A stretch of DNA of 64,000 bases from a virus. The stretch lies in the IMG/VR virus record IMGVR_UViG_3300014501_000001, positions 1 through 64,000 of that record. The stretch is one strand, 5' to 3'. Numbering within the stretch: the stretch's first letter is position 1; every line of letters begins with the position of its first letter. Below the pieces are notes generated by a model that did no database searches, was not told where the DNA came from, and worked only from the letters and a program-made list of their open reading frames with translations. Made by a program: the position numbers and the translations under genes. This document shows positions 44,796 to 60,511 of this stretch, one piece after another.

Positions 44796-47700
44796 TTGGC
44801 ATCTCCGGCCGCCATTATCGCCGCAGCGAAAGCCGCGCGCAGTGCGCCTTCCGCAGGCCAGGGCGGCATGTCACCCGCTGTTGCCGCCATGAACGATAGC
44901 TGGGGCGGCATTTACGGGAACTTCCTTCCCCGGCCTGCCCAGGACTTCACGCAGGGCGCGTTCGGGCCGCTGACACCCCTCCCGCCGATGCCGGTCGATC
45001 AGCCGCCGCCGGGCTTTGACCGCCCGATGCCGCGACGCTGGCAACCGCCAATAGGCTGGAATTTGCCGCAGAGCCCTCCGGGTAGCGAGGGGCTGAAGCT
45101 CTGCGGCTTCGGCGAGTTGCGCACCCTGAGCCGGCTCTACAGTGTCGCCCGCGCGTGCATCCAGCTCTTGAAGTCCGAGATCCGCGCCCTGGAATGGGAC
45201 ATCGTGCCCACGAAGGACGCGGCGAAGGCCATGCGCGGCGACCACAAGGCCATGCGGGACTTCGGCGAGCGCCGGTCCGAGTGCATCCGGTTCTTCAAGA
45301 ACCCGGACCCGGAGTACGGGTCGTGGTCCTCGTGGCTGGACACGCTGCTGGAGGAAATCTACGCGATAGATGCGCTTAGCGTATTTTTGCGCCCTTCGCG
45401 TGTCCGGGGACGCGGGCTAATGGGATCGGACCTGTCAGCGCTTGAGCTGATAACAGGTGATTCGATTCGCCCGATGGTGGATCTTCATGGTTCACGCCCT
45501 ACGCCCCCATCTGTCGCTTTTCAGCAATTTTTGTATGGGGTGCCCCGCAGCGACCTCATGACCATCATGATGGGCGCCGACCTGACCGACGACCTCAAGG
45601 CCACCCAGGTCCATGAGTACCGGGGGGATCAGCTTCTGTACCTGCCTTACACAAGGCAGACGGACAGCCCCTATGGCTTCCCGCCGGCGGAGCAGGCGCT
45701 AGTCCCGGTGATGTCGGGGCTGTCCAAGCAGGGTTACCAGCTTGACTTCTTTCGTGAGGGTTCGGTACCTGCTGTATATATTTCGCCTGGGGATGCCGCT
45801 ATGACCGCATCTCAGGTGCGGGAGCTTCAGGATGCATTGAACGTTATTGCCGGAGATGTCGGGTTTAAGCATAAGGTCATAGTGCTGCCCCCCGGCAGTA
45901 AGCCGTACCCGCAGAAGGACCCGCAGCTAGCCGACCAGTTCGACATGGTCGTGTCTACCGAGGTCTGCATGGCCTATCAGGTGCAACCCACCGAACTTGG
46001 GCTAATGCCGCAAGTAGCCACCGTGCAAAGTCCGTCAAGTATGAACCAGGCAGCCAAGGCGGACGCCGCGCGCCACCAGCGCAAGTCCCTCGTCCCGATG
46101 CTCCAGTTCCTCAAGCAGGGCCTGCTGGACAAGGTCATCCAGGTTGCCTGCGGGCAGACGGACATGCAGTTCCTGTTCGAGGGCCTGGAAGAGGACGAGG
46201 ACGAGGTCTCCCTGACGGGCCTGCTGGGAACGCAGATCGGCACCGGCCTGCGGTCGGTGGACGAGGGCAGGGGCGTCCTGGGCCTGGACCCGTGGGGCCT
46301 GCCGGTCACCCAGGACCCGCTGTGGGCATCCGCGAACGGCGTCATGCTGCTGGGGTCGGTGGACCCGGCGACGGGCCAGCCGGGCGGCCAGCTGGCGGGG
46401 CTGCCGTCCGTGACGCAGCAGATGCAGGGCGCGCAGGGCGGTGCCGCAGGCTCGCCGGGCGCGAACGAGGGCCAGGTGAACGGCAAGCCCGCGCTCGCGC
46501 AGGGCCACCTGCCGGGCACCACGCATGTCCCCCCGGCTCAGCCGCAGCGGGACCCGACACCCTCGCATTCGGCGGCGATAGCGGGAGCGGCGGAAGCAGC
46601 GGCAGCGGTCTCGGGCTCGTCCTCGAAAGCGGCAACGGCAGGGCAGGACGGGCTGCACCGCTACGAGCCGTTCGTCCCCGGCGACCAGTCCGCGTGCGTG
46701 AAGTGCAGCCTGCCGCGCAGCTATGCCGCCCACGCAGTGACGGCGATCGGGTCGCGGATGATGCTGAAGGCCATCGCGGCACCCGTTGCGCCAAGGCCGC
46801 CGGATCATGTCCTCGCGGAGATCCTGACCGCCCCGGACGCTGCGTCGCTGAGCAAGGCCGCAGCAGCCGCGCTGATGCCTGCCCTGCCGGAAACCCCGGC
46901 CGTGTCGTCCAAGGCCGCGCTGAGCGAGCTGGATGCGCTGGGCAGGCACGTCCGCAAGGGCCGCGACCCCGCAACCTGGCAGCCGGTCCACATCCCCGGT
47001 CACGTCATGGCCATGATCTGCGAGGACGTGACGAAGGGCATAGCCATTGCGGAAGTGCTGACGGCGGCGGCTGACCAGATCCCAAAAGCCTCAGCCGCCA
47101 AGAGCGGCCCTAGCAGCGGTCAGCGGCGGCAGGCGTGGCTTGCCTGGGAGCATGACCTCCAGCTGGCGGCGAAGTACGAGAAGCAGATCGGGGCCGCTTT
47201 CGCGTCGGTGATGGCCGAGGCGGGCAGGCTGTTCGCCGCGTTCCTCGCCGGGACCCTCGCGGTCACTGCGGCGGTTCTGGCGTCGATGATCGCGGACCTG
47301 ATCCGGCAGCGGCTCGCGCTGATCCTGGCTCCCTTGCACGCGGAGGGCCGGGAACTGGGCGCGGCGGCGGCCATGCAGGCAGTAGGGGCGTCCGCACGGC
47401 AGCGGCAGGGGATAGCGGCGGCGCAGCAGGCGGACACGTCCCAGATCGCCCAGCAGGCCGCGGTAAGGCAGATGGCCGGCACCGGGCTCGCCGGGTTCAC
47501 CGTCGCGCTCATGAAGCTGCTCCTCGGCGGCGCGGTCACCGTTGGGGCGCTGCTGGCGCTGCTGGATGCGTTCCTTAACGCTGAGAACCGCGCCGGGCTG
47601 ATCGCCCTGACGGAGATCGAGAAGGCCATCGCGGACGGGGCCTTCGGGGTCTACACCGAGCTAGGCGTGAGTTACGTCCGCTGGCACACCCGTAACGACT

Positions 47701-49337
47701 CAAGGGTCTGCGCCCGCTGCATGGCCAACCAGGACGCCGGCCCGGTTCCGCTGGGGAGCCTGTTCCCCGGCGGGGTCGCCCAGCCGTGCCAGCATCCAGG
47801 ATGTCGTTGCTGGCTGGCTCCGAGCGATCCGCCGAAGCAGGGTGTTGCGCCTCCCGCGCCGGGGACTGCGAAGGCGGCCGGGGCTCCGCTGCTCTACCAA
47901 GGACCCGTCCATGGGGGCCCATTGAGCTACCCGCCAACCATGGATGGCGAGGCGGGACTCGAACCCGCAACCTACGGAACCCCGGCCGCAGTGCACCTTA
48001 CCAAGGCCGACAAACCCTGGAAGCACCCGGACACGTCTCTCCCTGTCGCTGAGCAGGTCTACGCGCAACTGCTGGAGGACTACCCCGCCTCGGCGCTGAC
48101 CTGGGTAAAGGACGCTACCTGGACCGGCCCGCAAGAGGTCCCGCTCAGCGCGATCGAGTACACCCCGGACAAGTGGCAGGCCGGCCACGAGGACGCCAAG
48201 GTCGATCGCTTCAAGGCCAAGATCGAGCGCCGGCAGGCGGCAGGCAAGCCGGTCAAGCCGGCCGTCCTCATCGACCGGCCGGACACGAAGCCGGGAACGC
48301 ACCTGATCGTGATCGACGGCCACCACCGCACGATGGCCTTCCATGAACTGAATCGTCCCGTCGTCGCCTACGTCGGCAAGGTCACCACAGCAGGAGCGAG
48401 TGCGGCAGAGGAAACTCACGCCTCGCAGTTCAGCGACCGGAAGCCGGGCGCGGGCGACGACGGGCGCACCATGAAGAACTTCACGGCGGCGAACCTCGGC
48501 GACGGCTCGGTGCACGGCCTCGCGCCGTATGACCTGCGGGGCCAGGACGACGGCTGCGGCTGCTGCGCGGAGTGCAGCGGCCCGTCGTGCGGCTGCTGCC
48601 CGGACTGCGATGCGGCCAAGGCGGCACGCGGCTACAGCCTGAACCCGCGCTCGGGCATGATCTCCCTGGACCTGCCGGAAGGGCTGATCGAGCCCCTGCC
48701 AGGCGGGGTCACGGATCACCATGTGACCGTGGTTTACCTCGGGCCTGACGTGGATGACGACGCATTCAGCGCCGCGTGCGGCATGGCACGCGAGGTCGCG
48801 GCGGCCACGCAGCCGCTGTCCGGGACCATCGGCGGCATCGGCTCGTTCCCTGCCGGTGATGACGGGGTTCCGGTCTGGGCCGGCGTGAACCTGCCCGGTG
48901 CCGAGACACTGCACGAGGCGCTGGCTGAACTTCAGTCACCGGACGCGAAGGCCCGCGAGCACGGCTACAAGCCGCACTGCACCATCGCGTACCTCGAAGA
49001 GGGCGACCCGCTGCCGGATCCGCTGCCCCACATGCCGGTGACATTCACTCACCTGTCGGTACATCGCGGCGAGGACGTGAAGCGGTTCTCGTTCGGTGGC
49101 GGCTCAGCGGAGAAGTCAGGCAAGACCAGCGCCGAGATCCTCCGCGAGTACTGGACCCATGAAGGGCACCCCGGCCCCACGCAGTACGCCCTGGAAGAGA
49201 AGATCCGCTGGGGCGAGAAAGACGACTGGTACCGCTGCGTGGACGAGCTAACGCCCTACATCGGCGAGGGTGCGCGTGGCTATTGCACGCTCAGGCACCA
49301 CGAGGTCCTGGGTGCCTGGCCCGGACATCCGGTCTGA
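44796..49337 (+). CDS. Portal polyprotein: portal + Mu gpF-like head domain + ParB/Srx-like + 2H phosphoesterase + C-terminal KIRWG domain
   Basis: Portal motifs SPYGFPPAEQ, FFREGSVP, VDEGRGVLGL; gpF WHTRNDSRVCARC...QHPGCRCW; VIDGHHR; HVTV...HCTI. Confidence 0.85.
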   Translation: MASPAAIIAAAKAARSAPSAGQGGMSPAVAAMNDSWGGIYGNFLPRPAQDFTQGAFGPLTPLPPMPVDQPPPGFDRPMPRRWQPPIGWNLPQSPPGSEGLKLCGFGELRTLSRLYSVARACIQLLKSEIRALEWDIVPTKDAAKAMRGDHKAMRDFGERRSECIRFFKNPDPEYGSWSSWLDTLLEEIYAIDALSVFLRPSRVRGRGLMGSDLSALELITGDSIRPMVDLHGSRPTPPSVAFQQFLYGVPRSDLMTIMMGADLTDDLKATQVHEYRGDQLLYLPYTRQTDSPYGFPPAEQALVPVMSGLSKQGYQLDFFREGSVPAVYISPGDAAMTASQVRELQDALNVIAGDVGFKHKVIVLPPGSKPYPQKDPQLADQFDMVVSTEVCMAYQVQPTELGLMPQVATVQSPSSMNQAAKADAARHQRKSLVPMLQFLKQGLLDKVIQVACGQTDMQFLFEGLEEDEDEVSLTGLLGTQIGTGLRSVDEGRGVLGLDPWGLPVTQDPLWASANGVMLLGSVDPATGQPGGQLAGLPSVTQQMQGAQGGAAGSPGANEGQVNGKPALAQGHLPGTTHVPPAQPQRDPTPSHSAAIAGAAEAAAAVSGSSSKAATAGQDGLHRYEPFVPGDQSACVKCSLPRSYAAHAVTAIGSRMMLKAIAAPVAPRPPDHVLAEILTAPDAASLSKAAAAALMPALPETPAVSSKAALSELDALGRHVRKGRDPATWQPVHIPGHVMAMICEDVTKGIAIAEVLTAAADQIPKASAAKSGPSSGQRRQAWLAWEHDLQLAAKYEKQIGAAFASVMAEAGRLFAAFLAGTLAVTAAVLASMIADLIRQRLALILAPLHAEGRELGAAAAMQAVGASARQRQGIAAAQQADTSQIAQQAAVRQMAGTGLAGFTVALMKLLLGGAVTVGALLALLDAFLNAENRAGLIALTEIEKAIADGAFGVYTELGVSYVRWHTRNDSRVCARCMANQDAGPVPLGSLFPGGVAQPCQHPGCRCWLAPSDPPKQGVAPPAPGTAKAAGAPLLYQGPVHGGPLSYPPTMDGEAGLEPATYGTPAAVHLTKADKPWKHPDTSLPVAEQVYAQLLEDYPASALTWVKDATWTGPQEVPLSAIEYTPDKWQAGHEDAKVDRFKAKIERRQAAGKPVKPAVLIDRPDTKPGTHLIVIDGHHRTMAFHELNRPVVAYVGKVTTAGASAAEETHASQFSDRKPGAGDDGRTMKNFTAANLGDGSVHGLAPYDLRGQDDGCGCCAECSGPSCGCCPDCDAAKAARGYSLNPRSGMISLDLPEGLIEPLPGGVTDHHVTVVYLGPDVDDDAFSAACGMAREVAAATQPLSGTIGGIGSFPAGDDGVPVWAGVNLPGAETLHEALAELQSPDAKAREHGYKPHCTIAYLEEGDPLPDPLPHMPVTFTHLSVHRGEDVKRFSFGGGSAEKSGKTSAEILREYWTHEGHPGPTQYALEEKIRWGEKDDWYRCVDELTPYIGEGARGYCTLRHHEVLGAWPGHPV
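47874..47989 (-). ncRNA. Circularly permuted tRNA-like (YrlA-like topology) element antisense within the portal gene
   Basis: 16-bp closing stem; T arm GCGGG-UUCGAGU-CCCGC; acceptor CUCGCCA/UGGCGGG closed by UCCAUGGU; D arm UAGCUCA...UGGUAGAGCA. Confidence 0.75.
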
Positions 49338-49759: not shown

Positions 49760-51748
49760 GTGAGCACCCCGTATGCGGCGAGCATCATCGTTTCCCCTGC
49801 AGGGAACGGGCAGGCCGGGGTAACCATCTCACCAGGAGGACTGCCAGGGCCGTCAGCGCCGGGTACGTACTACCTGGATTCCTACACCGGATCCGATGAC
49901 GCGAAGATGACGGCGGCCCTGACCGCCCTGTTCGCCGCCACCCCGGCGGGCGGGACGATCATCCTCGCGCCGCGTGCCTACAGCTGCTCGCTCCAGTCGT
50001 GGGCGACGGCCTACAGCGCGGGCGTTGCCACGGCGGTGAAAATCCAGGGCGCCGGCGCGGGCTTCAACGGGGCGTGGGGCGCCCCGGAGGGTGCCACGAC
50101 CGTCACGTTCACCTACTCCGGCAGCGGCGCCGCGATGATGGATTTCCAGCACATCGGCACTATCGAGATATGCGGGATCCAGTTCATCCAGGCGAACACC
50201 GGTAAGCCGTTTTTGCTGACCACGAACGCGACGCCGAACCTGCACGACAACGTGTGGTCCGGCGGCGGCACCGGGGTCACCTGCGCGACGGACGCGATCG
50301 TGCTCGGCGGTACCGGGACCACGGTCGGCTCCGGCGACACCGCCCCGTACCAGGGCTATCAGGGCGACATCTACCGCAACTTCTTCGACGGCATCCGCCG
50401 CCCGGTGCTGTTCCAGGAGTACGCGAACTCCGTCCAGGTCCACGGCAACACCATCTCGCTGACCTGCGGCAGCAACCTCTACCAGGGCTCCGCGTTCGAG
50501 ATGCTGGGGTCGGGCAGCGGCTCCTGCTCGGGCAACGCGGTGTACGGCAACTGCATCGAGTGCACGCACTATTCGTTTGCCGTCCGGGCGCAGTATGCCG
50601 TGGGCAACACGCTCGGCCCGAACGGGCTGTTCGACATGTCAACCCCGTGGATCGCCGGCTACTACCTGGGGCCGAACGCGGGCTCTAACGAGGTCATCGA
50701 CGGGGAGCGCACTACGGTCAGTGCCCCGCTGTGCTGGGACCTGAGTCCCGGCTCGAACAACCGGCAGCGGAACGCGGCGCGCGGCTCCGGGCAGTACGAG
50801 CGCTTCAGTACCCCGGTGGGCTTCTACGGCACGGCAGGACCGCCGCAGAGCTTCTACTTCGGCCAGGGCGTCATCGGGGTCGAGAAGACCGGCAACCAGG
50901 CTTACTGGGAGACCCTGCCGGGAGTCAATCCGTACCCGCAGGTGGCGCTGTTCACGATCGCCGCCACCCAGTTCACTGACGGTAACCTGGTCAGCGGCTC
51001 GCAGTGGGTCACCAGCCTGACCGCCGCTTTCGCCCTCGCCGACGTGGGCCAGGCCATCGGCGCGACCGGGATCCCGTCGCAGACCCAGATCATGCTGACG
51101 GTCACCGCGACCACCGCATTCCCGTGGCAGGCGTCCCGCGCCTACGCGGCCGGGGACGTGATCCGGCCGGCCAGCGCGAACGCTCACCTGTACCAGTGCG
51201 CCGTCGCCGGGACCACTGCTGCCAGCCAGCCCGTGTTCCCCGTCAACGGCAGCACGGTCACTGACGGCGGCGTGACCTGGCAGGATCTCGGCACCTCGGC
51301 CGCCTGCTGCATCAGCAACCCGGCGACCGCGACCGCTAGCGGCGTCACGATCGGCATCTCCCGGGCAGCCGGGACCAGTACCGAGGTCATCGCGTTCGAG
51401 CGGACCCACATCCGCAGTCAGGGCAGCGCGCCGTCCGGGGCTGCCGGTGCCGGGGCGGGCTCATCGCCGTCCGCGATATCGGCCACGGGCACTGACCTGG
51501 CCTTCACGTTCAGTATCACGACGGGCGGATCCGGGACCGCCGCCGGCGCGATGTTCTCGGTGGCGCCGGCGCTCGGCTGGACGGCGGCGCCGCACTTCAC
51601 CATGACGGCCGGGAACTCCGCGACGGCTTCCCTGATGGCGGGCGGGTTCTGGCTGACGACCACCGGCGGCGGCACCGTGACGGCGAGCTTCGTGAACGCC
51701 CCGGTGATCTCCACCGCCTACGTGTTCGCCTTCACGGCCATCCAGTAG
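49760..51748 (+). CDS. Beta-helix (pectin-lyase-like) virion protein with carbohydrate-binding-like motif
   Basis: DDAKMTAAL...GGTIIL; Asn-ladder repeats; WQASRAYAAGDVI...TVTDGGVTW. Confidence 0.7.
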   Translation: MSTPYAASIIVSPAGNGQAGVTISPGGLPGPSAPGTYYLDSYTGSDDAKMTAALTALFAATPAGGTIILAPRAYSCSLQSWATAYSAGVATAVKIQGAGAGFNGAWGAPEGATTVTFTYSGSGAAMMDFQHIGTIEICGIQFIQANTGKPFLLTTNATPNLHDNVWSGGGTGVTCATDAIVLGGTGTTVGSGDTAPYQGYQGDIYRNFFDGIRRPVLFQEYANSVQVHGNTISLTCGSNLYQGSAFEMLGSGSGSCSGNAVYGNCIECTHYSFAVRAQYAVGNTLGPNGLFDMSTPWIAGYYLGPNAGSNEVIDGERTTVSAPLCWDLSPGSNNRQRNAARGSGQYERFSTPVGFYGTAGPPQSFYFGQGVIGVEKTGNQAYWETLPGVNPYPQVALFTIAATQFTDGNLVSGSQWVTSLTAAFALADVGQAIGATGIPSQTQIMLTVTATTAFPWQASRAYAAGDVIRPASANAHLYQCAVAGTTAASQPVFPVNGSTVTDGGVTWQDLGTSAACCISNPATATASGVTIGISRAAGTSTEVIAFERTHIRSQGSAPSGAAGAGAGSSPSAISATGTDLAFTFSITTGGSGTAAGAMFSVAPALGWTAAPHFTMTAGNSATASLMAGGFWLTTTGGGTVTASFVNAPVISTAYVFAFTAIQ

Positions 51749-52046: not shown

Positions 52047-53633
52047 ATGACAGGGAGCCTTGCCACGGGTGCGGGTGCACCAAATACCGTTGTTGAAATC
52101 CAGCCCGGAATGCTGGTCCAGGCTGTCACATTGGTTGACGAATCGGGCAACCCGGTCACCCCCGGCGGCGGGACCGCGACCGCGCTGGCCACCCTGACGA
52201 CGCCCGTTAACGTCTCGGGTGCGACCGCGCCGACAGCGAATCAGGTCCTGACCGCCGTCAGCGCCTCGGTGGCCACCTGGCAGGCGTCATCCTCGGGGTT
52301 CGCTAACCCGATGACGACCCAGGGTGACCTGATCTACGAGAACGCCACCCCGGCAGCGGCCCGTCTCGCGGGCCCCACGTCGGCGACGAGGCAGTACCTC
52401 CAGTCCACCGGCACCGGGGCAGCGCCGCAGAACCCGGCCTGGGGCACCATCGCCGCCGGCGACGTCCCCACCCTGAACCAAAACACGACGGGCACGGCGC
52501 TCAACGTGACCGGAACCGTCGCTACCACGAACGGCGGCACGGGCGTAGCGGCGGCAAGCGCTGCCGCCGCCTTCAACGCCCTGTCGCCGCTGACGACTGC
52601 CGGTGACACCCTCTACGGCGGCACGTCCGGGGCGGGCACGCGGCTGGCGGGGCCGGCTGCGGCAACGAAGAACTTCCTGACCAGCACGGGAACCGGCTCA
52701 GCGGCGCAGGCGCCAGCGTGGGCAACTATCGTCTCCGGTGACCTCCCCGGTGCCACCACGTCAGCCCAGGGCGCGGTCGTCTTCGACGGGACCGCAGGCG
52801 ATATCCAGCCGGTAGGCACCCAGGCAGCGGGCGCGGTCGGCAAGGCCGCCGACGCGGGCCATGTCCACGGCCCGGCGTTCTTCGCCCAGTACACCGCGAC
52901 GCCGGGCACGCAGCCCACCCTCGCGACGGGAACGTACGAGCTGACAGCCGTGGGCGCCGGCGGCGGCGGTTCCGGCGGAGGCACGTCCTCCAACGCGGCC
53001 ACCCAGTCGGGCGGCGCCGGCGGCGGCTCGGGGGCGACTGCCCGCATGATCGCCGTCCTGGGGTCCGCGACGACGCTGACCGTCACCATCGGGGCGGGCG
53101 GCGGCGGCGGGGCGGGCGGCGCGGCGAATGGCGCCCCCGGCTCGCAGGGCGCTAACGGCGCCAGCACCACCATCACCGGGACCGGTGTTTCCCTTACGGC
53201 TTTCGGCGGGTCGCCGGGGCGCCACGCGACCACCAACTCGGCTGCGGCGGCGAACGGCGGCGGCTGGGGCGGCGGCAGTTACAACACGCAGAACGTGGCC
53301 AATGCGTCGCCGCCTGGCAGCGGCCAGGCGTCGGCGGCAGGCGGCACCTCGGGCGGCGGCGCCCCGGTTGACCTCGCGGGCGGCGGCGGCGGCGCGGGCG
53401 GCTCCGCGAATGCCACGCTCGGCGGCGGCGCCGGCGGTCCCGGGCTGGCGAGCGCCGGCGGCCTGGTCGGCACCGACAACACGTCCGGCACCACGTCAGG
53501 CGGCACGGCTGCCACCGCTACCACGATCGGCGCCGGGGGCGGCGGCGGCGGTGGCGGCGCTAACACGACCGGCACGGGCGGCACTGGCGGTACTGGCGGT
53601 CCCGGCTTCGCGATGATCCGCCGCATAGCCTGA
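52047..53633 (+). CDS. Gly/Thr/Ala-rich fibre-like virion protein
   Basis: TTxGDxxY repeats; glycine-rich C-terminal domain. Confidence 0.75.
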   Translation: MTGSLATGAGAPNTVVEIQPGMLVQAVTLVDESGNPVTPGGGTATALATLTTPVNVSGATAPTANQVLTAVSASVATWQASSSGFANPMTTQGDLIYENATPAAARLAGPTSATRQYLQSTGTGAAPQNPAWGTIAAGDVPTLNQNTTGTALNVTGTVATTNGGTGVAAASAAAAFNALSPLTTAGDTLYGGTSGAGTRLAGPAAATKNFLTSTGTGSAAQAPAWATIVSGDLPGATTSAQGAVVFDGTAGDIQPVGTQAAGAVGKAADAGHVHGPAFFAQYTATPGTQPTLATGTYELTAVGAGGGGSGGGTSSNAATQSGGAGGGSGATARMIAVLGSATTLTVTIGAGGGGGAGGAANGAPGSQGANGASTTITGTGVSLTAFGGSPGRHATTNSAAAANGGGWGGGSYNTQNVANASPPGSGQASAAGGTSGGGAPVDLAGGGGGAGGSANATLGGGAGGPGLASAGGLVGTDNTSGTTSGGTAATATTIGAGGGGGGGGANTTGTGGTGGTGGPGFAMIRRIA

Positions 53634-53708: not shown

Positions 53709-56399
53709 ATGGCAGCCACACTGACCGCCGGCAACGACCTTGCTTTCGCGAGTTTTCCCATCGAAAAGTGGGAGGACGGCCCGGACGGCTCGGTCTACGT
53801 CTACGGGAAGGCATCGACGCCCGAGATCGACACGGACGATCAGGTGGTCTCGCCCGATTTCTCGGGCCCGGCTCTCAAGCAGTGGATGGAAGCGCCCGCG
53901 CTCCGGGTGAACCATCAGGCCCGCCGCGACCCGGCCGGATCGGGCATTCACGTCGAGATTGACCGGGATGGCGACGGCGCCCACTGGGTGAAGTCGATCG
54001 TGGCCGAGAAGGAAGCGGTCCGGCTGGTCAAGGGCGGCCACCTGCGCGCCTACTCCATCGGCATCGCCCGGCCCGTCATCGAGCGCGACATGACCGGGAA
54101 GGCGCGCGGCGGCATCATCACGGGCGGCGTCATCGCCGAGGTCAGCCTGGTCGATTCGCCCGCGAACAGGTCATGTTTCCTAGAACTGGTCAAAGCGGAC
54201 AAGAACGGCGACGCGCAGTGGTCCGGCAAGGTGTTCGGCGCTGACGACTTCCTCGCCAAGGACGCCGCCCCGGACCTGATCAAGGGCACCGTCTCCTTCT
54301 CCCCTGATGACCTCGCCAAGCTTCTCCAGCACCGCAAGGTCGCCGAGGAGCGCGAAGCGGAAGTCACCAAGGCGGCGGCGGGAGCCGACGAGGCCGGCGG
54401 CGACAACGCTGCGGCTGACCAGGAGGACGAGTCCGGCAACGCCGACATGGAGAACGCCGACGACACGGACGCGCCGAAGGCAGCGGAGCCGGACGCGGCA
54501 GAGGTTGCCGTGGCCGATGCGGTGAAGGCGGTAGAGGTCGCCGTCTACAAGCGGGACGTCTCCGCAGCGGAGCGCAAGGAACTCGCCGGCAAGGGCCACG
54601 CGCTCAAGGACGGTTCCTACCCGATCGCCAACGCCGAGGATCTGGGCAACGCGGCGATCCTGGCCCGCTCCGGTCACGGTGACGTGGCAGCCGCGAAGGC
54701 GCTGATCGCCAAGCGCGCGAGTGAACTGGGCGTGGCCAACCCGCTCGACGACGACGCGGAGAAGGCCGCCACGGCCGATGACGCGCCCGCCGTTCCTGTC
54801 GCTGACAAGGCCGCGAAGCCGAAGATGGCGTGCCCGTCGTGCGGCAAGAAGTCCGGGGCGAAGAACCCGTTCTGCTTCAAGTGCGGCAAGAAGATGACCC
54901 CGGACACCGATGACAAGGCCGACAAGGCCGCATCCCCGACGCCCGCCGATGGCGTGAAGGACGCGCCGCCGGCCGAGCCCGTCACCCCGCACCGGGAGCC
55001 TGACGGGGTGGCGATGGAACAGCTCGAGGACGACGCGCACCTGGAGGGCGGCAACCCGGACGAGGGCGGCGAGCGCGCGGCCGAGGCCGCCGTAGCGCCT
55101 CCCGCAGCCGAGGACGCCCAGGTGGGCAAGACGGCCGGCTCCGAGGCCGCGTCGTGGCGGATCAGGGAGGCCGGCGCCTCGTGGGGCGAGGGGATCCTGC
55201 ATGATTTCCTGTGCCCCGCGTTCTCCCCGGACGCGACCGCGAAGTCCTACCCCGGCCAGACCCTCGCCGCCGTCGCGGACCCGGCGGAATGGCAGTCGAA
55301 GGCACTGTCGGCCGCGATCGACGCCCCGATCCCGGAGGCGGGCAAGGCGCAGCGCCGCTGGCAGGATGCCCTGACCATCGCCGGCACGGACGCCGAGACG
55401 GTCACGGGCCTGCGCTGGGAGGCGCACAAGGCGTTCGCCGACGCGAACCCCGGCCCCTCCGCGTACCCGACTCCGGGCGAGTTGCGCCCGCAGTCGTTCC
55501 GGCGCCCGATCCTCACTGACGGGCAGTCCCCGAGCCCGGCGGCGTCCGGCGCCAGCCCGTCGCACATCACGGCCGATCACATCTCGGCTACGGACTTCAC
55601 CCGCGGCCCGCTCACCGGAGGCCAGGAAGCCTCCAGCGAGCCAGAGGGAGACAACGGCTCCCAGGGCGTCCCGTCAGTGCCGGGGAAGCCGCAGCGGACC
55701 TTCTACCGCAACACGAGCCGCGACGGCGCCAGGGCCGCGATGGCGTCCATGCACGACCACATCGCGGGAACGTTCCCCGACCTGTGCCCCATGCACGGGC
55801 CCGGGATGGGCGGCCAGCCGCCGGCGGGCGCGCGTCCCGTCCCGGTGCCGGGAACCCGGAAGGCAGAGGACGAGCCGGAGGTTGTCAAGGCAGCGGCGCC
55901 GGCAGGCAAGCCGGCCAAGGTGGCGTGCCCGTGCGGCAAGAAGGCCCGTCCCGGCAAGTTCTGCCCCGGCTGCGGCGAGAAGATGCCGATGAAGGGCGGC
56001 ATGGCTGCCAAGGCAGCGGACCCGCTGCCCGCCGTCGCCGCGCTCCCGGTCCCGTCGCTGGACGCCGCGGCGCTCCAGGCAGCCGTCGAGAAGGCCATCG
56101 CCCCTCTCGCCGCCAGGCTTGAGCAGCAGGGCGATCTCATCGACCAGATGGCCTCTGCCCCTGACCCCCGCTATGCCCCGTTCAAGGCCGTGGCTGCCGG
56201 CGGGGTGCTCCCGAAGGCCCTCCAGCCGGCCCCGGCGGTACCTGAGCGGAGCGCCGTGGAGAAGGCAGCCAGCAACGTGCAGGAAACCCTCCTGCGCGAC
56301 CTCCAGTACCAGGCCCGCAACGACCCGGACCCCGGCAGGCGGGAAGTCGCCTGGCAGGAGCTGACCAGGCTGCTGAACGTCGCGGGCGGCACGCGGTAG
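53709..56399 (+). CDS. Prohead protease fused to scaffold with accessory domains and Zn ribbons
   Basis: VYGKAST..IDTDDQVV, RVNH, AYSIG, EVSLVDSPAN; DGSYPI domain; CPSCG/CPCG. Confidence 0.85.
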   Translation: MAATLTAGNDLAFASFPIEKWEDGPDGSVYVYGKASTPEIDTDDQVVSPDFSGPALKQWMEAPALRVNHQARRDPAGSGIHVEIDRDGDGAHWVKSIVAEKEAVRLVKGGHLRAYSIGIARPVIERDMTGKARGGIITGGVIAEVSLVDSPANRSCFLELVKADKNGDAQWSGKVFGADDFLAKDAAPDLIKGTVSFSPDDLAKLLQHRKVAEEREAEVTKAAAGADEAGGDNAAADQEDESGNADMENADDTDAPKAAEPDAAEVAVADAVKAVEVAVYKRDVSAAERKELAGKGHALKDGSYPIANAEDLGNAAILARSGHGDVAAAKALIAKRASELGVANPLDDDAEKAATADDAPAVPVADKAAKPKMACPSCGKKSGAKNPFCFKCGKKMTPDTDDKADKAASPTPADGVKDAPPAEPVTPHREPDGVAMEQLEDDAHLEGGNPDEGGERAAEAAVAPPAAEDAQVGKTAGSEAASWRIREAGASWGEGILHDFLCPAFSPDATAKSYPGQTLAAVADPAEWQSKALSAAIDAPIPEAGKAQRRWQDALTIAGTDAETVTGLRWEAHKAFADANPGPSAYPTPGELRPQSFRRPILTDGQSPSPAASGASPSHITADHISATDFTRGPLTGGQEASSEPEGDNGSQGVPSVPGKPQRTFYRNTSRDGARAAMASMHDHIAGTFPDLCPMHGPGMGGQPPAGARPVPVPGTRKAEDEPEVVKAAAPAGKPAKVACPCGKKARPGKFCPGCGEKMPMKGGMAAKAADPLPAVAALPVPSLDAAALQAAVEKAIAPLAARLEQQGDLIDQMASAPDPRYAPFKAVAAGGVLPKALQPAPAVPERSAVEKAASNVQETLLRDLQYQARNDPDPGRREVAWQELTRLLNVAGGTR

Positions 56400-57073: not shown

Positions 57074-57772
57074 ATGGCGGACATTCTCGAAGCAACGATC
57101 GCCCCGGCTGACCAGCTCAGCCCCACGGGCGCAGAGGTCGCCGGCAACGTCGCGCAGTTCTCCCGCACGGGGGAAATGCTGAAGGCCCGGCTCCCGAACC
57201 TCGTCAAGGGAGCAGGCTACGCCGGGACCGGCAACGCCCCCCTCACCGACGAGATCCAGATCATGACCAAGGCATCCCAGGCCGCTATCGACCTGCGGCA
57301 GGCAACCTGGGACGGCATCACCGACAAGCCGGCCGTGGTCAAGGGCATGAACCAGGGGTTCCTGAACCAGTTCGGGTACCTGAAGACGGCCCTGACGGCC
57401 CCGTCGCTGATGGACACCCTCGCGGGTGTCTTCGGGCAGATGCCCGGCGGCAGCGAGGCGTTCAAGAATTTCACGGCCGGCAATCTCGGGGTGGGGTCGG
57501 TGTACGGTTTGGTGCCGTTTGACCTCATGCGACCGAGTCGTCTGATCTACCCGGTATATACCGTTTTCCGCAACAAATTCCCACGGCCCCAGGGCCAGGG
57601 CACGAGCGCGCAGGAACGGGTCATCACCGGCATCTCTGGCAGCCAGACCGGCGGCCAGGGTGTCCTCGACGTGTCCATCACCGAGCTGGTTCAGAGCGGC
57701 GGTACGTTCTCGAACTGGCCCCTCAACCTGCCGCCTTCGGGCTCGCAGACTGAGGTCTTCCTCAATGTGCCT
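57074..57772 (+). CDS. Major capsid protein, exon 1
   Basis: Position after protease/scaffold; FDLMRPSRLIYPVYTVFRNKFPR; ends ...LNVP at the P1 U.G pair. Confidence 0.8.
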
Positions 57773-59120
57773 TGCATCCTGTAGGGCCGCCGCGCCGCGA
57801 GGCGCACGCGATAACCGCGAGAATTGCTGGAAAGCCCGTACCACATGCACATGCCACAACGTGGGGCGAAAGCCCGAGCGTGATGGCCTGAAAAATGTGC
57901 ATTAGGGGTAATCAGCAGCCGAGCCCGCCTGGACCGCGACACGCGGCACCGACGGGATGGTTCAGAGACTATGCACGCGGGTTCTGGTAATCTTTAACGA
58001 TGGAGATTAATAACGATGACTGGCAGATAATGGCCGGTCAGGAGCGGGAAGAGTTCATTCGGCGCTACGTGGCTGGCGAGGCCCTGACATCCCTCGCCAG
58101 GGAGTATCACCACGGGCCTGCCACGCTGAGGGCAATCCTCGTCAGCGTGGGGGTGCCAGTCCGGACAAGGCCCGGATACGCCAAGGGCAGGAAGTGGTCA
58201 GAAGCGCAGCGTGAAGCTCACAGGCGCACAACTAGCACCCCTGAGCACAGGCAGAAGATGCGCGCGATCATGCTGAAACGCCTCCCGGTCATGCGCGGAG
58301 CGGCGACGAACTCTCCGATCGAGCGCCGGATGCAAGATGCGCTCATGGCGGTCGGCATCGGCTTCACAACGCAGTCTGTCCTGCTGGACCGCTACCTGGT
58401 GGACATCGAGATCCACCAGGCACCCATCGTGATTGAGGCTGACGGCGCGCAGCACACACTGCGCATCCAGAAGGCCAAGGACGCCGAGCGCGACACGGCT
58501 CTCACTGCCGCCGGGTACCGGGTTTTCCGGTTCACGGGCAGCGAGATCAATGCCGACGCCGTGCTGTGTGTCCGGCGTGTTATCGACGCTTGCTTCCTGG
58601 TTCCCGACCAGGAGCCCATCTATGAAATCCGCACGGCTTTCACTGGCGAACTCCACCCGCTCTGGAAGGGCGGCAAGCGGGAGTTCACCTGCGAGATCTG
58701 CGGGGTCGTGTTCATGGCTCAGCCTGCGCACCGCAAGGGGCCGCACATCTACTGCAGCATGCAGTGCAATGGTGCAGCCAAGCGCGGCAAGACGGCGAGT
58801 GCTGAGACCCGTGCCAAGATCAGCGCCGCGAATAGGGGCAAGGAGCGCAAGCCCCCGCCACCGTTCACGGCCGAGCATCGCGCCAAGATCAGCGCAGGGC
58901 TTAAGGGCAGGCCAAAGACTGCGGAGCACGCCGCCAAGGTTGGTGCAGCGCAGGCTGGCAGGCCAAAGTCCGCCGAGACTCGGGCAAAGATCAGCGAAAC
59001 GCTCAAGCGTCGAAACGCAAACCAGAACAAGATAGAGTCCGCTCTGCATGGAGACATGCAGAGGCCGGCAGAAATGACCGGCCCCGCCACCCTGTTCTGA
59101 GGGCGGCGAGTAACAACAGG
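57773..59120 (+). ncRNA. Group I intron 1 carrying a homing endonuclease in L8
   Basis: IGS GUAGGGC pairs with GCCU|UAC; P GAAUUGCUGGAA, Q AAUCAGCAG, R GUUCAGAGACUA, S AAGAUAGAGUCC; P8 GUUCUGGU/ACCAGAAC; terminal G. Confidence 0.92.
58000..59100 (+). CDS. Intron-encoded Vsr-like/DUF559 (EDxHD-type) endonuclease with NUMOD3-like repeats
   Basis: SPIE, YLVDI, IEADGAQH, DAERD, GYRVFRF; SAETRAKIS repeats. Confidence 0.85.
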   Translation: MEINNDDWQIMAGQEREEFIRRYVAGEALTSLAREYHHGPATLRAILVSVGVPVRTRPGYAKGRKWSEAQREAHRRTTSTPEHRQKMRAIMLKRLPVMRGAATNSPIERRMQDALMAVGIGFTTQSVLLDRYLVDIEIHQAPIVIEADGAQHTLRIQKAKDAERDTALTAAGYRVFRFTGSEINADAVLCVRRVIDACFLVPDQEPIYEIRTAFTGELHPLWKGGKREFTCEICGVVFMAQPAHRKGPHIYCSMQCNGAAKRGKTASAETRAKISAANRGKERKPPPPFTAEHRAKISAGLKGRPKTAEHAAKVGAAQAGRPKSAETRAKISETLKRRNANQNKIESALHGDMQRPAEMTGPATLF

Positions 59121-59180
59121 TACCGTTTCTTCGGCATCAGCGAGCAGCTTTCCTGGCTCGCGCAGTTCGCAGGACAGGGT
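59121..59180 (+). CDS. Major capsid protein, exon 2 (20 codons)
   Basis: YRFFGISEQLSWLAQFAGQG; in frame after both splices. Confidence 0.85.
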
Positions 59181-59455
59181 CAACTTAGAGGCCCCCTCGC
59201 AGGGTGACCTGCGAGTTCACTCGGCACCGTAACGGTGAACCCCGCCAAGCCAAGGGGAATACCGTGGAAACCTCGCACTACAGGGTTCCGTAGAGAGCAA
59301 GCGTGCCGCGCCTGTGTCATGGGACCTGCCCCGAGTGCATCAGGGGCAGCGGACCGCAGGCGAAGTTGTGCTCCGGGCTCGCGCGATGGAAAAGCGCGAG
59401 AGGCGTCCAGAAATGAGGCGCCCGGCCGTCCCCAGTGGCGGCAGGTAACAGTTCG
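59181..59455 (+). ncRNA. Group I intron 2, ORF-less, 275 nt
   Basis: IGS GAGGCCC pairs with GGGU|UUC; P3 CGGCAC/GUGCCG; AACGGUGAA, AAUACCGUGG, CGUAGAGAGCA, AAGUUGUGCUCC; terminal G. Confidence 0.85.
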
Positions 59456-60511
59456 TTCGAGGACATTGCCGGCCTGGCCAACCTGATCATGCTTCAGGAG
59501 GCCATGCTCGGAGAGGAATATCAGTTCATAGCGGGCACTTCCGCTCCGCTGGCCGTTCCCGCAGCACCGACCTGCACTGTCCGCACCGCCGGCTCCAATG
59601 AGACGGCGCTCAACACGAACATCACCGCGGTCAAGGTGGCCGCGACCAACTACTTCGGCTCGACCGCCGTCTCGGCGGCCTCGTCCACGTTCGCCGTGGC
59701 GTCCGGCCAGGTCGTGGATGTCACGATCGCCCCGGTCGCGGGCACGATGACCTACTCGATCTACGCCTTCACGTCCGGTTCCAGCTACTACCTGCTGGCA
59801 TCGGGCGTCGGCGGCCAGAAGTACACCCTGCAGGGCTTCTCGTCCCTGCCGACCGCCGTCGTCCCCCCGGCTGCCGACACCGGCACCGGGAAGAACACCC
59901 GGATGGAAGGCGTCATCCCGACGCTCACCGGGGCGTCGGCCGCTGCGGGGGTCTACCCCAGCGGCTGGCAGGGCGGCTACGTCAACCAGTCCGTGGGAAC
60001 CCACCTGTCCTACAACGCCATCTACACGGCGCTGGACAGCCTGTGGGAGTCCAACTCCAACTCACCGGGCGCATTCAAGGCGGACCCGCAGGAGATCGTC
60101 GGCGACGGCGGCGACATCATGCGCCTGTCCAACGACGTGATCTCGGCGGGGACGGCGACGAACTACCGCCTGTTCCTGGAGCAGCAGGAAGTCGGGGGAA
60201 TGCGCGTCGGCGGCGCCGTCAGCGAGTTCCAGAACCCGATCACCCGGTCCATCCTCAAGCTGGTCGTCCACCCCTGGTTCACGCAGGGCACGGCGGCCTT
60301 CATGACCTACCAGCCGCCGATGACCTACTCCCAGATCAGCAATGCCTGGGAAGCCCGAATGGTGCAAGATTACGCCAGTATTGCCTGGCCTGTCATAGAT
60401 GCGACCTTTAGGTTCTCAATCTTCTGGTATGGGGCCTTGATCGCGAATGCGCCATTCTTCTCCGGTTTGCTCCAGGGGCTCCAGATTAGTGACGTTACGC
60501 CCTACTCCTGA
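59456..60511 (+). CDS. Major capsid protein, exon 3
   Basis: FEDIAGLANL...EE; FN3-like insertion; LVVHPWFTQGT; YGAL...P. Confidence 0.8.
   Translation, partial: FEDIAGLANLIMLQEAMLGEEYQFIAGTSAPLAVPAAPTCTVRTAGSNETALNTNITAVKVAATNYFGSTAVSAASSTFAVASGQVVDVTIAPVAGTMTYSIYAFTSGSSYYLLASGVGGQKYTLQGFSSLPTAVVPPAADTGTGKNTRMEGVIPTLTGASAAAGVYPSGWQGGYVNQSVGTHLSYNAIYTALDSLWESNSNSPGAFKADPQEIVGDGGDIMRLSNDVISAGTATNYRLFLEQQEVGGMRVGGAVSEFQNPITRSILKLVVHPWFTQGTAAFMTYQPPMTYSQISNAWEARMVQDYASIAWPVIDATFRFSIFWYGALIANAPFFSGLLQGLQISDVTPYS

Follow-up and report, generated by a model that had tools for sequence, protein, structure and literature searches.

The major capsid protein and the portal polyprotein of an uncultivated phage share a 21-residue peptide, which in the capsid spans the junction between leader and N-arm and in the portal lies in a disordered linker upstream of an enzymatic cargo domain. 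Both genes are located in the window, a stretch of 64,000 nucleotides that constitutes positions 1 to 64,000 of the complete 113,096-bp record IMGVR_UViG_3300014501_000001 (IMG/VR; direct terminal repeats, 68% G+C). The portal copy appears to be a selected short linear motif that imitates the capsid maturation junction, namely a Lys and the first 20 residues of the N-arm. We propose, with about evenly balanced confidence, that this linker peptide is a shared recognition and cleavage module for an S78-type protease-scaffold protein, which would cut after the Lys and free cargo in the prohead. All coordinates refer to the window; the capsid, portal and protease-scaffold genes and those of their segments located below by coordinates lie on the plus strand. 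A slash within a motif marks a putative cleavage point.

The capsid junction peptide is copied in the portal polyprotein

The portal copy (48474-48536) translates to KNFTAANLGDGSVHGLAPYDL, within a wider stretch (48471-48540) that translates to MKNFTAANLGDGSVHGLAPYDLR; it consists of K1227 and NFTAANLGDGSVHGLAPYDL, and is followed by RGQ. Its counterpart in the first capsid exon (57464-57526) translates to KNFTAGNLGVGSVYGLVPFDL, that is, K131 followed by NFTAGNLGVGSVYGLVPFDL, the start of the N-arm. The two peptides are identical at 16 of 21 residues and 47 of 63 bases, and different codons are used at 8 of the 16 identical residues, which confirms both the copy and the codon divergence described in a first-pass annotation of the window. 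In a BLASTP comparison of the whole portal open reading frame (ORF) with capsid exon 1, the similarity was confined to the 21-residue stretch (E = 2e-7). When all six frames of the entire 113-kb genome were searched with the capsid exon, the portal site was the sole second place returned (E = 2e-6), and a hidden Markov model of the peptide detected exactly two copies in this genome. No match was obtained by megablast of the portal gene or tblastn of capsid exon 1 against cultured phages, in two metagenome contig scans (one with a degenerate DNA pattern, one with the related portal fusion P0010 as query), or in a pattern scan of genome contigs.

The peptide had been placed just before the 2H domain of the portal polyprotein. 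It lies upstream of this domain at a distance of about 50 residues, directly after a ParB/DdrB-like domain with a DGHHR motif (48048-48440, aa ~1085-1215). The latter was recognized by reading of the motif and by its AlphaFold2 (AF2) fold, which is compact and confident (model residues 1-140); it has no profile match of its own, and a relative is labelled "ParB/Sulfiredoxin domain" by its source database. Behind the peptide, a variable linker extends from RGQ to K1275 and ends in AAK/AARGY (48537-48620), as delimited from the sequence and from comparison of fusions. The 2H phosphoesterase cargo domain follows (48648-49070, aa ~1285-1425; PF13563, E = 4.6e-12), with both HxT motifs (HVT and HCT) present, a confident AF2 fold and a match to TIGR02258 below the cut-off (E = 1e-6). 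In the AF2 model of the last 439 portal residues, the ParB-like and 2H domains are confidently predicted and the linker joining them, which contains the peptide, has a predicted local distance difference test (pLDDT) score below 50.

The capsid peptide lies at the tip of the N-arm

Because the capsid gene of the window is split by introns, we modelled the fold with AF2 on an uninterrupted orthologue, P0096 (63% identity), from an alignment of 73 homologues. In the resulting model (pLDDT 80), residues 1-119 form a helical leader and the HK97 fold begins after a flexible stretch (residues 110-146, pLDDT below 50) that includes the junction peptide. Foldseek assigned P0096 with a probability of 1.0 to the capsids of SPO1, SU10, D3, T5 and HK97 (1ohg), with E-values down to 5e-12, identifying it as a major capsid protein of the HK97 fold. 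Since the helical leader precedes it and the HK97 fold follows it in this model, the capsid peptide is placed at the N-arm tip and adjoins a leader that resembles a delta domain. The leader of the phage under study is helical and ends before K131; its length of 130 aa agrees with the estimate in the first-pass annotation. Comparison of the capsid sequence with Pfam, NCBIfam and PDB sequences gave no match.

The residue before the capsid peptide is Lys in 70 and Arg in 3 of the 73 homologues, and no other position in the N-terminal half is conserved as well. The consensus of the family reads ADLxK/D[IW][TS]LTSPLSSGLVP[YF]DL. The tolerance of Arg favors a basic P1 residue over a cross-linking Lys, and a role of this residue in an isopeptide cross-link was rejected on account of the Arg found in its place in three natural sequences. 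The junction thus combines the boundary between leader and N-arm of an HK97-fold coat protein, a flexible segment and a conserved P1 position (K/R in 73/73), as expected of a protease site. Across the family, the leader varies in length from ~15 to 130 aa. The cultured relatives of the capsid are all distant (Thermoanaerobacterium THSA-485A, Brevundimonas phages, and the Arthrobacter phages Mufasa8 and Sonali), and a broad capsid alignment was too diverse to serve for a locus scan.

The portal copy is an island of conservation in related fusions

A database search with the C-terminal region of the portal yielded 88 homologous portal fusions with varied cargo. The peptide is kept in about seven portal fusions, two of them known as fragments only; these include a 97%-identical relative (P0009), P0010, P0011 and P0013 as well as the fragments P0369 and P0371. 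In all of these portals, the peptide follows the ParB-like domain and is preceded by a Lys, and it is succeeded by RGQ in five full-length fusions and by KGS in fragment P0371. Over the five fusions, 71% of the columns from the Lys to RGQ are invariant; the corresponding values are 41% for the ParB core and 29% and 3% for the linkers on either side. Conservation in homologous portals, on which the first-pass annotation had staked its reading, was therefore found. The copy of P0010 is identical to the capsid peptide of the phage under study at 20 of 21 residues. Additionally, all portal copies carry an Asp where capsids carry Val or Ile (GDG versus G[VI]G), and the block that is kept in the portal (K, NFT, G, GL.P[YF]DL) corresponds to the positions conserved family-wide in capsid N-arms.

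The cargo domain downstream of the portal peptide varies, being 2H in some of the fusions and NUDIX in others. The peptide therefore has no fixed link to 2H, and a role specific to 2H was rejected, as the same peptide is placed ahead of NUDIX. Portal relatives with 54% identity (clade 1b, loci L004-L018) carry the capsid peptide nearly unchanged and have no portal copy; we therefore regard the portal copy as an accessory feature. Most of these portals stop just past the ParB domain (...DPxNK plus about three residues), and one of them, L004, has a 2H domain without a copy of the peptide. The portals of the cultured phages that we checked, Mufasa8 and Sonali, likewise contained no copy.

Two further observations concern the vicinity of the peptide. 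The segment that separates the peptide from the 2H domain contains an 18-residue insert with nine Cys (CGCCAECSGPSCGCCPDC, 48555-48608), which the 97%-identical relative L003 lacks and for which P0010 has an acidic run instead. The insert may be neutral, or it may be a mini-module that binds metal. Further, a stand-alone ORF of 57 aa in a Logan assembly (P0370) reads MTEDPLLRAIEAHNEK-NFTAGNLGDGSVHGLAPYDL-VGQ followed by an acidic tail, and thus consists of nothing but a short leader, then the Lys, a motif of the portal type and the tail, with no cargo. P0370 is a single gene call and may be a fragment.

A second clade carries a copy that matches its own capsid

By running a profile of the capsid N-arm against portal homologues, we found a second clade, of which 30 loci (L027-L056) were collected. 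Its portals have no ParB domain and a different motif. In each of the 14 phages whose locus includes both genes, there are exactly two copies of G[IV]TxxTG[ILV]x[SG]YDL (in short form, GITxxTGIxSYDL). The capsid copy lies four residues past a conserved Lys near the N-terminus, behind a leader of only ~15-20 aa (...EETLAAITK/AQTTGILESTGIYSYDL). In the portal, the copy is located in a linker rich in Pro, downstream of the core; a conserved VAK/[DE]G precedes it, and an acidic stretch and another Lys site, VAK/E, come behind it. The spacing between the Lys and the motif amounts to 6-13 aa in the portals and 4 aa in the capsids.

Portal cores of clades 1 and 2 are 25-27% identical and their capsids 21-23%. 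When 17 residues were compared, the portal copies matched the capsid of their own clade at 10-12 residues and that of the other clade at 5-6. The co-variation of the peptide with its cognate capsid, proposed as a check in the first-pass annotation, thus holds at the level of clades and does not extend to a finer scale: within clade 2, cognate pairs were if anything less alike than shuffled ones (permutation P = 0.998 for 14 pairs, which represent few independent lineages). This lower likeness may reflect avoidance of identical repeats, or phylogenetic structure only. In a third capsid clade (KDISLTSP-type, 80 loci), none of the ORFs of the loci contained a second copy. As the nearer relatives of each clade (clade 1b; Mufasa8 and Sonali) have no portal copy, two independent gains are the simplest history, and such a history argues strongly for a function.

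Protease-scaffold protein and lysines at domain borders

The candidate reader of the motif is a protease-scaffold fusion protein of 896 aa (53709-56399), whose N-terminal ~165 aa constitute the S78 (HK97-type) prohead protease. With the N-terminal 184 aa as query, 27 of the 30 nearest ESM Atlas clusters were Peptidase_S78 (score 0.97). TIGR01543 matched over 121 of 142 positions below its cut-off (E = 0.009), and H69 and S116 are invariant in 60 protease-scaffold homologues. On these grounds we consider an S78 prohead protease to be encoded in the head module. Pfam gave no significant match on this ORF, and an hhalign comparison of the protease-scaffold alignment with the "capsid maturation protease" of Mufasa8 was not significant. 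The family shares a conserved C-terminal helix region, RNDPDPxxREVAW. In Mufasa8 (genes 4-5, L057:5129-6795) and Sonali (genes 5-6, L058:5785-7250), the annotated "capsid maturation protease" comprises merely ~125 aa, and the overlapping next ORF starts with the apparent rest of the protease fold (..RVDIVDEPATGIPF..) and continues into an Ala/Pro-rich scaffold. The protease-scaffold protein of these two phages may be a frameshift product, or its annotation may be mis-split.

Lys-Ala motifs at domain borders of portal and scaffold had been taken as signs of programmed processing. The motif itself is indeed enriched: K-A occurs 2.1-fold over expectation in the two head polyproteins (portal and protease-scaffold), to which the enrichment is confined, compared to 1.04-fold in the other ORFs of the genome. 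It is also directional, K-A being more common than A-K, including in the sets of homologues. In the linker just after the protease domain, K162 (57/60) and K184 (56/60; DDxL[AT]K/A) are conserved. A Lys lies 8-10 residues ahead of the 2H domain in 73 of 81 fusions irrespective of the upstream sequence, and DPxNK closes the ParB-like domain. The sites at these borders follow a loose pattern, hydrophobic-x-K/(D/A/S/N/E), and this pattern is circumstantial evidence that they may be processing sites.

How the portal copy may act

In the mechanism that we propose, the portal linker would pass for a capsid processing site when met by the head-assembly machinery of the neighboring genes. The S78 protease-scaffold would dock on the portal motif and cut after Lys-1227, and a second cut would probably take place after Lys-1275. 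The C-terminal 2H phosphoesterase, or NUDIX in relatives, would thereby be freed as cargo inside the prohead and later be ejected together with the DNA. We infer the cleavage, its place and the role of the protease-scaffold as reader of the motif from the following support. The copy is unique in the genome, corresponds to the leader/N-arm junction and is accompanied by an adjoining S78-type protease; it forms a conserved island in a disordered linker at which 2H and NUDIX cargo is swapped; the copy of the second clade matches its own capsid; and border Lys residues are conserved elsewhere. Precedents are the Pro protease of P1, which processes the coat as well as DarA (PMC12810830), and the portal/MuF-2H fusions known as injected polyvalent proteins (PMC5512222).

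Several points weigh against cleavage as the role of the motif. About 13 of the 21 positions are kept, up to 20 residues past the Lys, whereas a cleavage site needs few, and the spacing between Lys and motif is not constant in clade 2. The length of the kept block and this variable spacing suggest that the distal G(L/I)xxYDL block, rather than the scissile bond, may be the main functional element. Upstream of the Lys, portal and capsid have no sequence in common. Since clade 1b (including L004 with its 2H domain), Mufasa8 and Sonali have no copy, the copy is not required to process such fusions. The stand-alone P0370, without cargo, fits a pure cargo-release role poorly, and the border Lys residues could belong to the domains themselves. 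Finally, the S78 typing derives from language-model features, a sub-threshold profile match and conserved His and Ser residues, with no significant profile or fold match.

The first-pass annotation had suggested a prohead-protease site, an N-arm mimic that docks cargo inside the shell, or both. This suggestion is partly supported: conservation, matching at the clade level and the maturation-like context in the capsid speak for it, but the peptide is not tied to 2H and is accessory. Judged from the sequences, the evidence would fit either a protease site or a docking mimic. We consider it possible, although somewhat unlikely, that the motif acts purely as a docking mimic, which would bind the partner of the capsid N-arm with no need for cleavage. 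The partner could be the coat-binding C-terminus of the scaffold, in which case the portal would be drawn into the nascent shell as if it were 12 additional subunits of the coat. Alternatively, the motif could bind coat subunits around the portal vertex, which would thereby fix the portal extension, together with its cargo, to the inner surface of the shell.

The long kept block, which coincides exactly with the family-conserved positions of the capsid N-arm, favors such docking, as do the clade-specific matching and the variable spacing behind the Lys in clade 2. There are also precedents for N-arm recognition: scaffold C-termini bind the coat N-arm in 80alpha (PMC5644958), and scaffold density is found near the N-arm in P22 and T7 (PMC10275583). 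The RNDPDPxxREVAW region of the protease-scaffold could be the reader here. On the other hand, the motif lies ~650 aa from the portal core in the phage under study and directly after the core in clade 2, and a fixed anchor is unlikely to move in this way. Further, the hydrophobic Val/Ile of the capsid is replaced by Asp in all portal copies, and close relatives assemble without the copy.

A broader claim would unite docking and processing. The coat N-arm copy could be a portable self-mimicry tag for cargo loading or portal anchoring in a large lineage of high-GC tailed phages, with at least two origins. After a cut at the Lys, the cargo (2H, NUDIX or MuF-linked effectors) or a released peptide would bear the N-terminus of the mature coat, and the tagged products would occupy coat N-arm or scaffold-binding sites in the shell. 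Taken together, we regard this set of statements as unlikely.

More doubtful still is that the functional product is the peptide itself, an N-arm mimic with an acidic tail (27-48 aa) cut out at the flanking Lys sites (K1227/...AAK1275/). Such a free peptide could be an internal prohead peptide, or it could regulate the protease or N-arm sites or act as a decoy for them. The conserved Lys, motif and acidic run of both clades (K/NFTA...AAK/AARGY; VAK/DG...DDEDE..AVAK/E) are consistent with this, and P0370 encodes just leader, Lys, motif and acidic tail. However, NUDIX-type fusions have no second Lys site past the motif, P0370 may, as a single gene call, be a fragment, and no function of such a peptide is on record for the portal-fusion family.

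We disfavor, as very improbable, the explanation that the similarity is functionless, either by chance or as a remnant of illegitimate recombination or gene conversion between capsid and portal genes: the copy is indeed missing in 54%-identical relatives, covers just 21 residues and resides in highly mosaic genomes with swapped cargo domains, but its E-value of 2e-7, its retention through synonymous changes and across lineages with diverged flanking linkers, and the recurrence of an analogous copy, again fitted to the capsid of its own clade, in a portal lineage of 25% identity (14/14 phages) all speak against this.

Gene structure and neighborhood of the two copies

The portal polyprotein, a "polyvalent" virion protein, was delimited from the ORF list with its translation and from Pfam and PHROG matches; it comprises 1513 aa from a TTG start codon (44796-49337). 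The database gene call for this ORF (P0008) starts 24 codons downstream, at 44868. Pfam detected Phage_portal, 2_5_RNA_ligase2 and Phage_Mu_F. The portal core domain (45027-46535, aa 78-580) matched phrog_2662 (E = 3.4e-56) and PF04860 (Phage_portal, E = 1.1e-12), so that the portal identity given in the first-pass annotation holds, as does that of the 2H domain. It is followed by a MuF-like segment (SPP1 gp7/Mu F; 47577-47852, aa 928-1019) with matches to phrog_115 and phrog_4728 (E ~1e-6), for which PF04233 remained under the Pfam cut-off (E = 0.0015). Behind the 2H domain, the protein ends in a C-terminal domain of unassigned function (49101-49328; phrog_6439, E = 3.6e-12), which also terminates the fusions P0026 and P0038. 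With portal/MuF and effector domains in one polypeptide and a location among head genes, the protein represents a polyvalent portal/MuF effector fusion.

Two additional genes (49760-51748 and 52047-53633) separate the portal from the protease-scaffold gene. The first encodes 662 aa with a head-decoration-like stretch (phrog_20658); the second, which matches Gly_rich_2 weakly, encodes 528 aa. Relatives have no such intervening pair, and their portal gene is directly followed by the protease-scaffold gene.

The capsid gene is split twice (57773-59455), and the ORF 57074-57784 represents its first exon only. Exon 1 (57074-57772) encodes the leader, K131 and the N-arm and was assigned by phrog_13692 and by alignment to uninterrupted orthologues. 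Reading against these orthologues also revealed a micro-exon of 60 nt (YRFFGISEQLSWLAQFAGQG, 59121-59180) between the two insertions, and exon 3 (59456-60511) supplies the remainder of the HK97 fold (phrog_13692, E = 2.6e-31 on the ORF 59435-60511). The first insertion (1348 nt) carries an ORF for a DUF559/NUMOD3 homing endonuclease (58000-59100) and the second (275 nt) is free of ORFs; Rfam gave no match on the interrupted region. The capsid genes of relatives are uninterrupted and encode 610-625 aa. Two loci depart from this, with the capsid ORF broken after ...ASLILL (L015:9953-10804) and after ...SRLIYPV (L017:9965-10465). As these breaks lie at other positions, insertion sites vary between relatives. 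The many short capsid fragments returned by the protein search would fit a widespread interruption of the capsid gene.

Significance and comparison with known systems

The domain architecture of such portal fusions, and the processing of several head proteins by one prohead protease, are already known. In the literature that we searched, we found neither a copy of the coat N-arm junction inside a portal polyprotein nor its clade-matched recurrence. To our knowledge, the loading of injected effectors into heads and their separation from structural partners have been worked out mainly in T4, P1 and phiKZ-like phages. These effectors include likely anti-defence enzymes, for instance 2H and NUDIX domains. 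A coat-derived motif that is clade-matched in two deeply diverged clades offers a concrete, mutable handle on the loading and separation of cargo. Should the motif prove to be a tag for docking, HK97-fold shells could be loaded with foreign cargo by means of it.

Polyvalent portal/MuF fusions with DdrB-like ParB, 2H and NUDIX effectors, predicted to be injected early, are described by Iyer et al. 2017 (PMC5512222); the proposed role of the 2H domain is either degradation of nucleotide signals (2'-5' or cyclic) or action on RNA ends. These fusions have the same domain architecture as the portal described here; in that paper, processing is ascribed to dedicated peptidase domains, and term searches of it found no mention of a capsid-derived linker motif (PMC5512222). 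The motif suggests a simple rule by which processing sites in "polyvalent" virion proteins could be predicted.

In HK97, the S78 prohead protease gp4 is responsible for the delta-domain maturation of the coat protein gp5. The cut in gp5 is made at K103/S104, in an unstructured stretch of the prohead (PMC10275583). The phage under study resembles HK97 in its HK97-fold coat, N-terminal helical leader, basic junction residue in a flexible segment and S78-type protease in the head module. It differs in that the junction, here a predicted site, is duplicated together with the first 20 N-arm residues in the portal polyprotein, that the protease is fused to a long scaffold, and that leaders in the family range from ~15 to 130 aa.

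Comparable processing of multiple substrates is carried out by T4 gp21, with the capsid-targeting sequences of internal proteins, and by the prohead proteases of phiKZ and SPN3US. The Pro protease of P1 trims the major capsid protein as well as DarA, an internal protein with an anti-restriction role (PMC12810830). As we propose here, one prohead protease serves the coat and the internal, injected proteins in these systems, and cargo is freed or trimmed in the prohead. Their substrates, however, have only a short consensus for cleavage in common, or are separate proteins that each bear a targeting leader at the N-terminus, in contrast to the 21-residue coat N-arm look-alike within the linker of a portal fusion. 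A capsid-targeting sequence of the T4 type, which is a short leader at the very start of a separate internal protein and is removed by the prohead protease, was rejected, as the motif is internal (residue 1227 of 1513); it lies near an N-terminus only in the unverified 57-aa ORF P0370.

The C-terminus of the P22 scaffold gp8 forms a helix-turn-helix that binds the coat N-arm. The "helix-and-hook" of 80alpha SP/CpmB shows the same binding of a scaffold C-terminus to the N-arm (PMC5644958). In these phages, as possibly here, the coat N-arm is a handle that is recognized by the assembly machinery. We know of no case in which a portal bears a copy of this handle. Cargo-loading peptides of encapsulins are similar in that a short disordered peptide tethers an enzyme cargo inside an HK97-fold shell, but they sit at a terminus, have no sequence relationship with the shell protein and act without any coupling to proteolysis.

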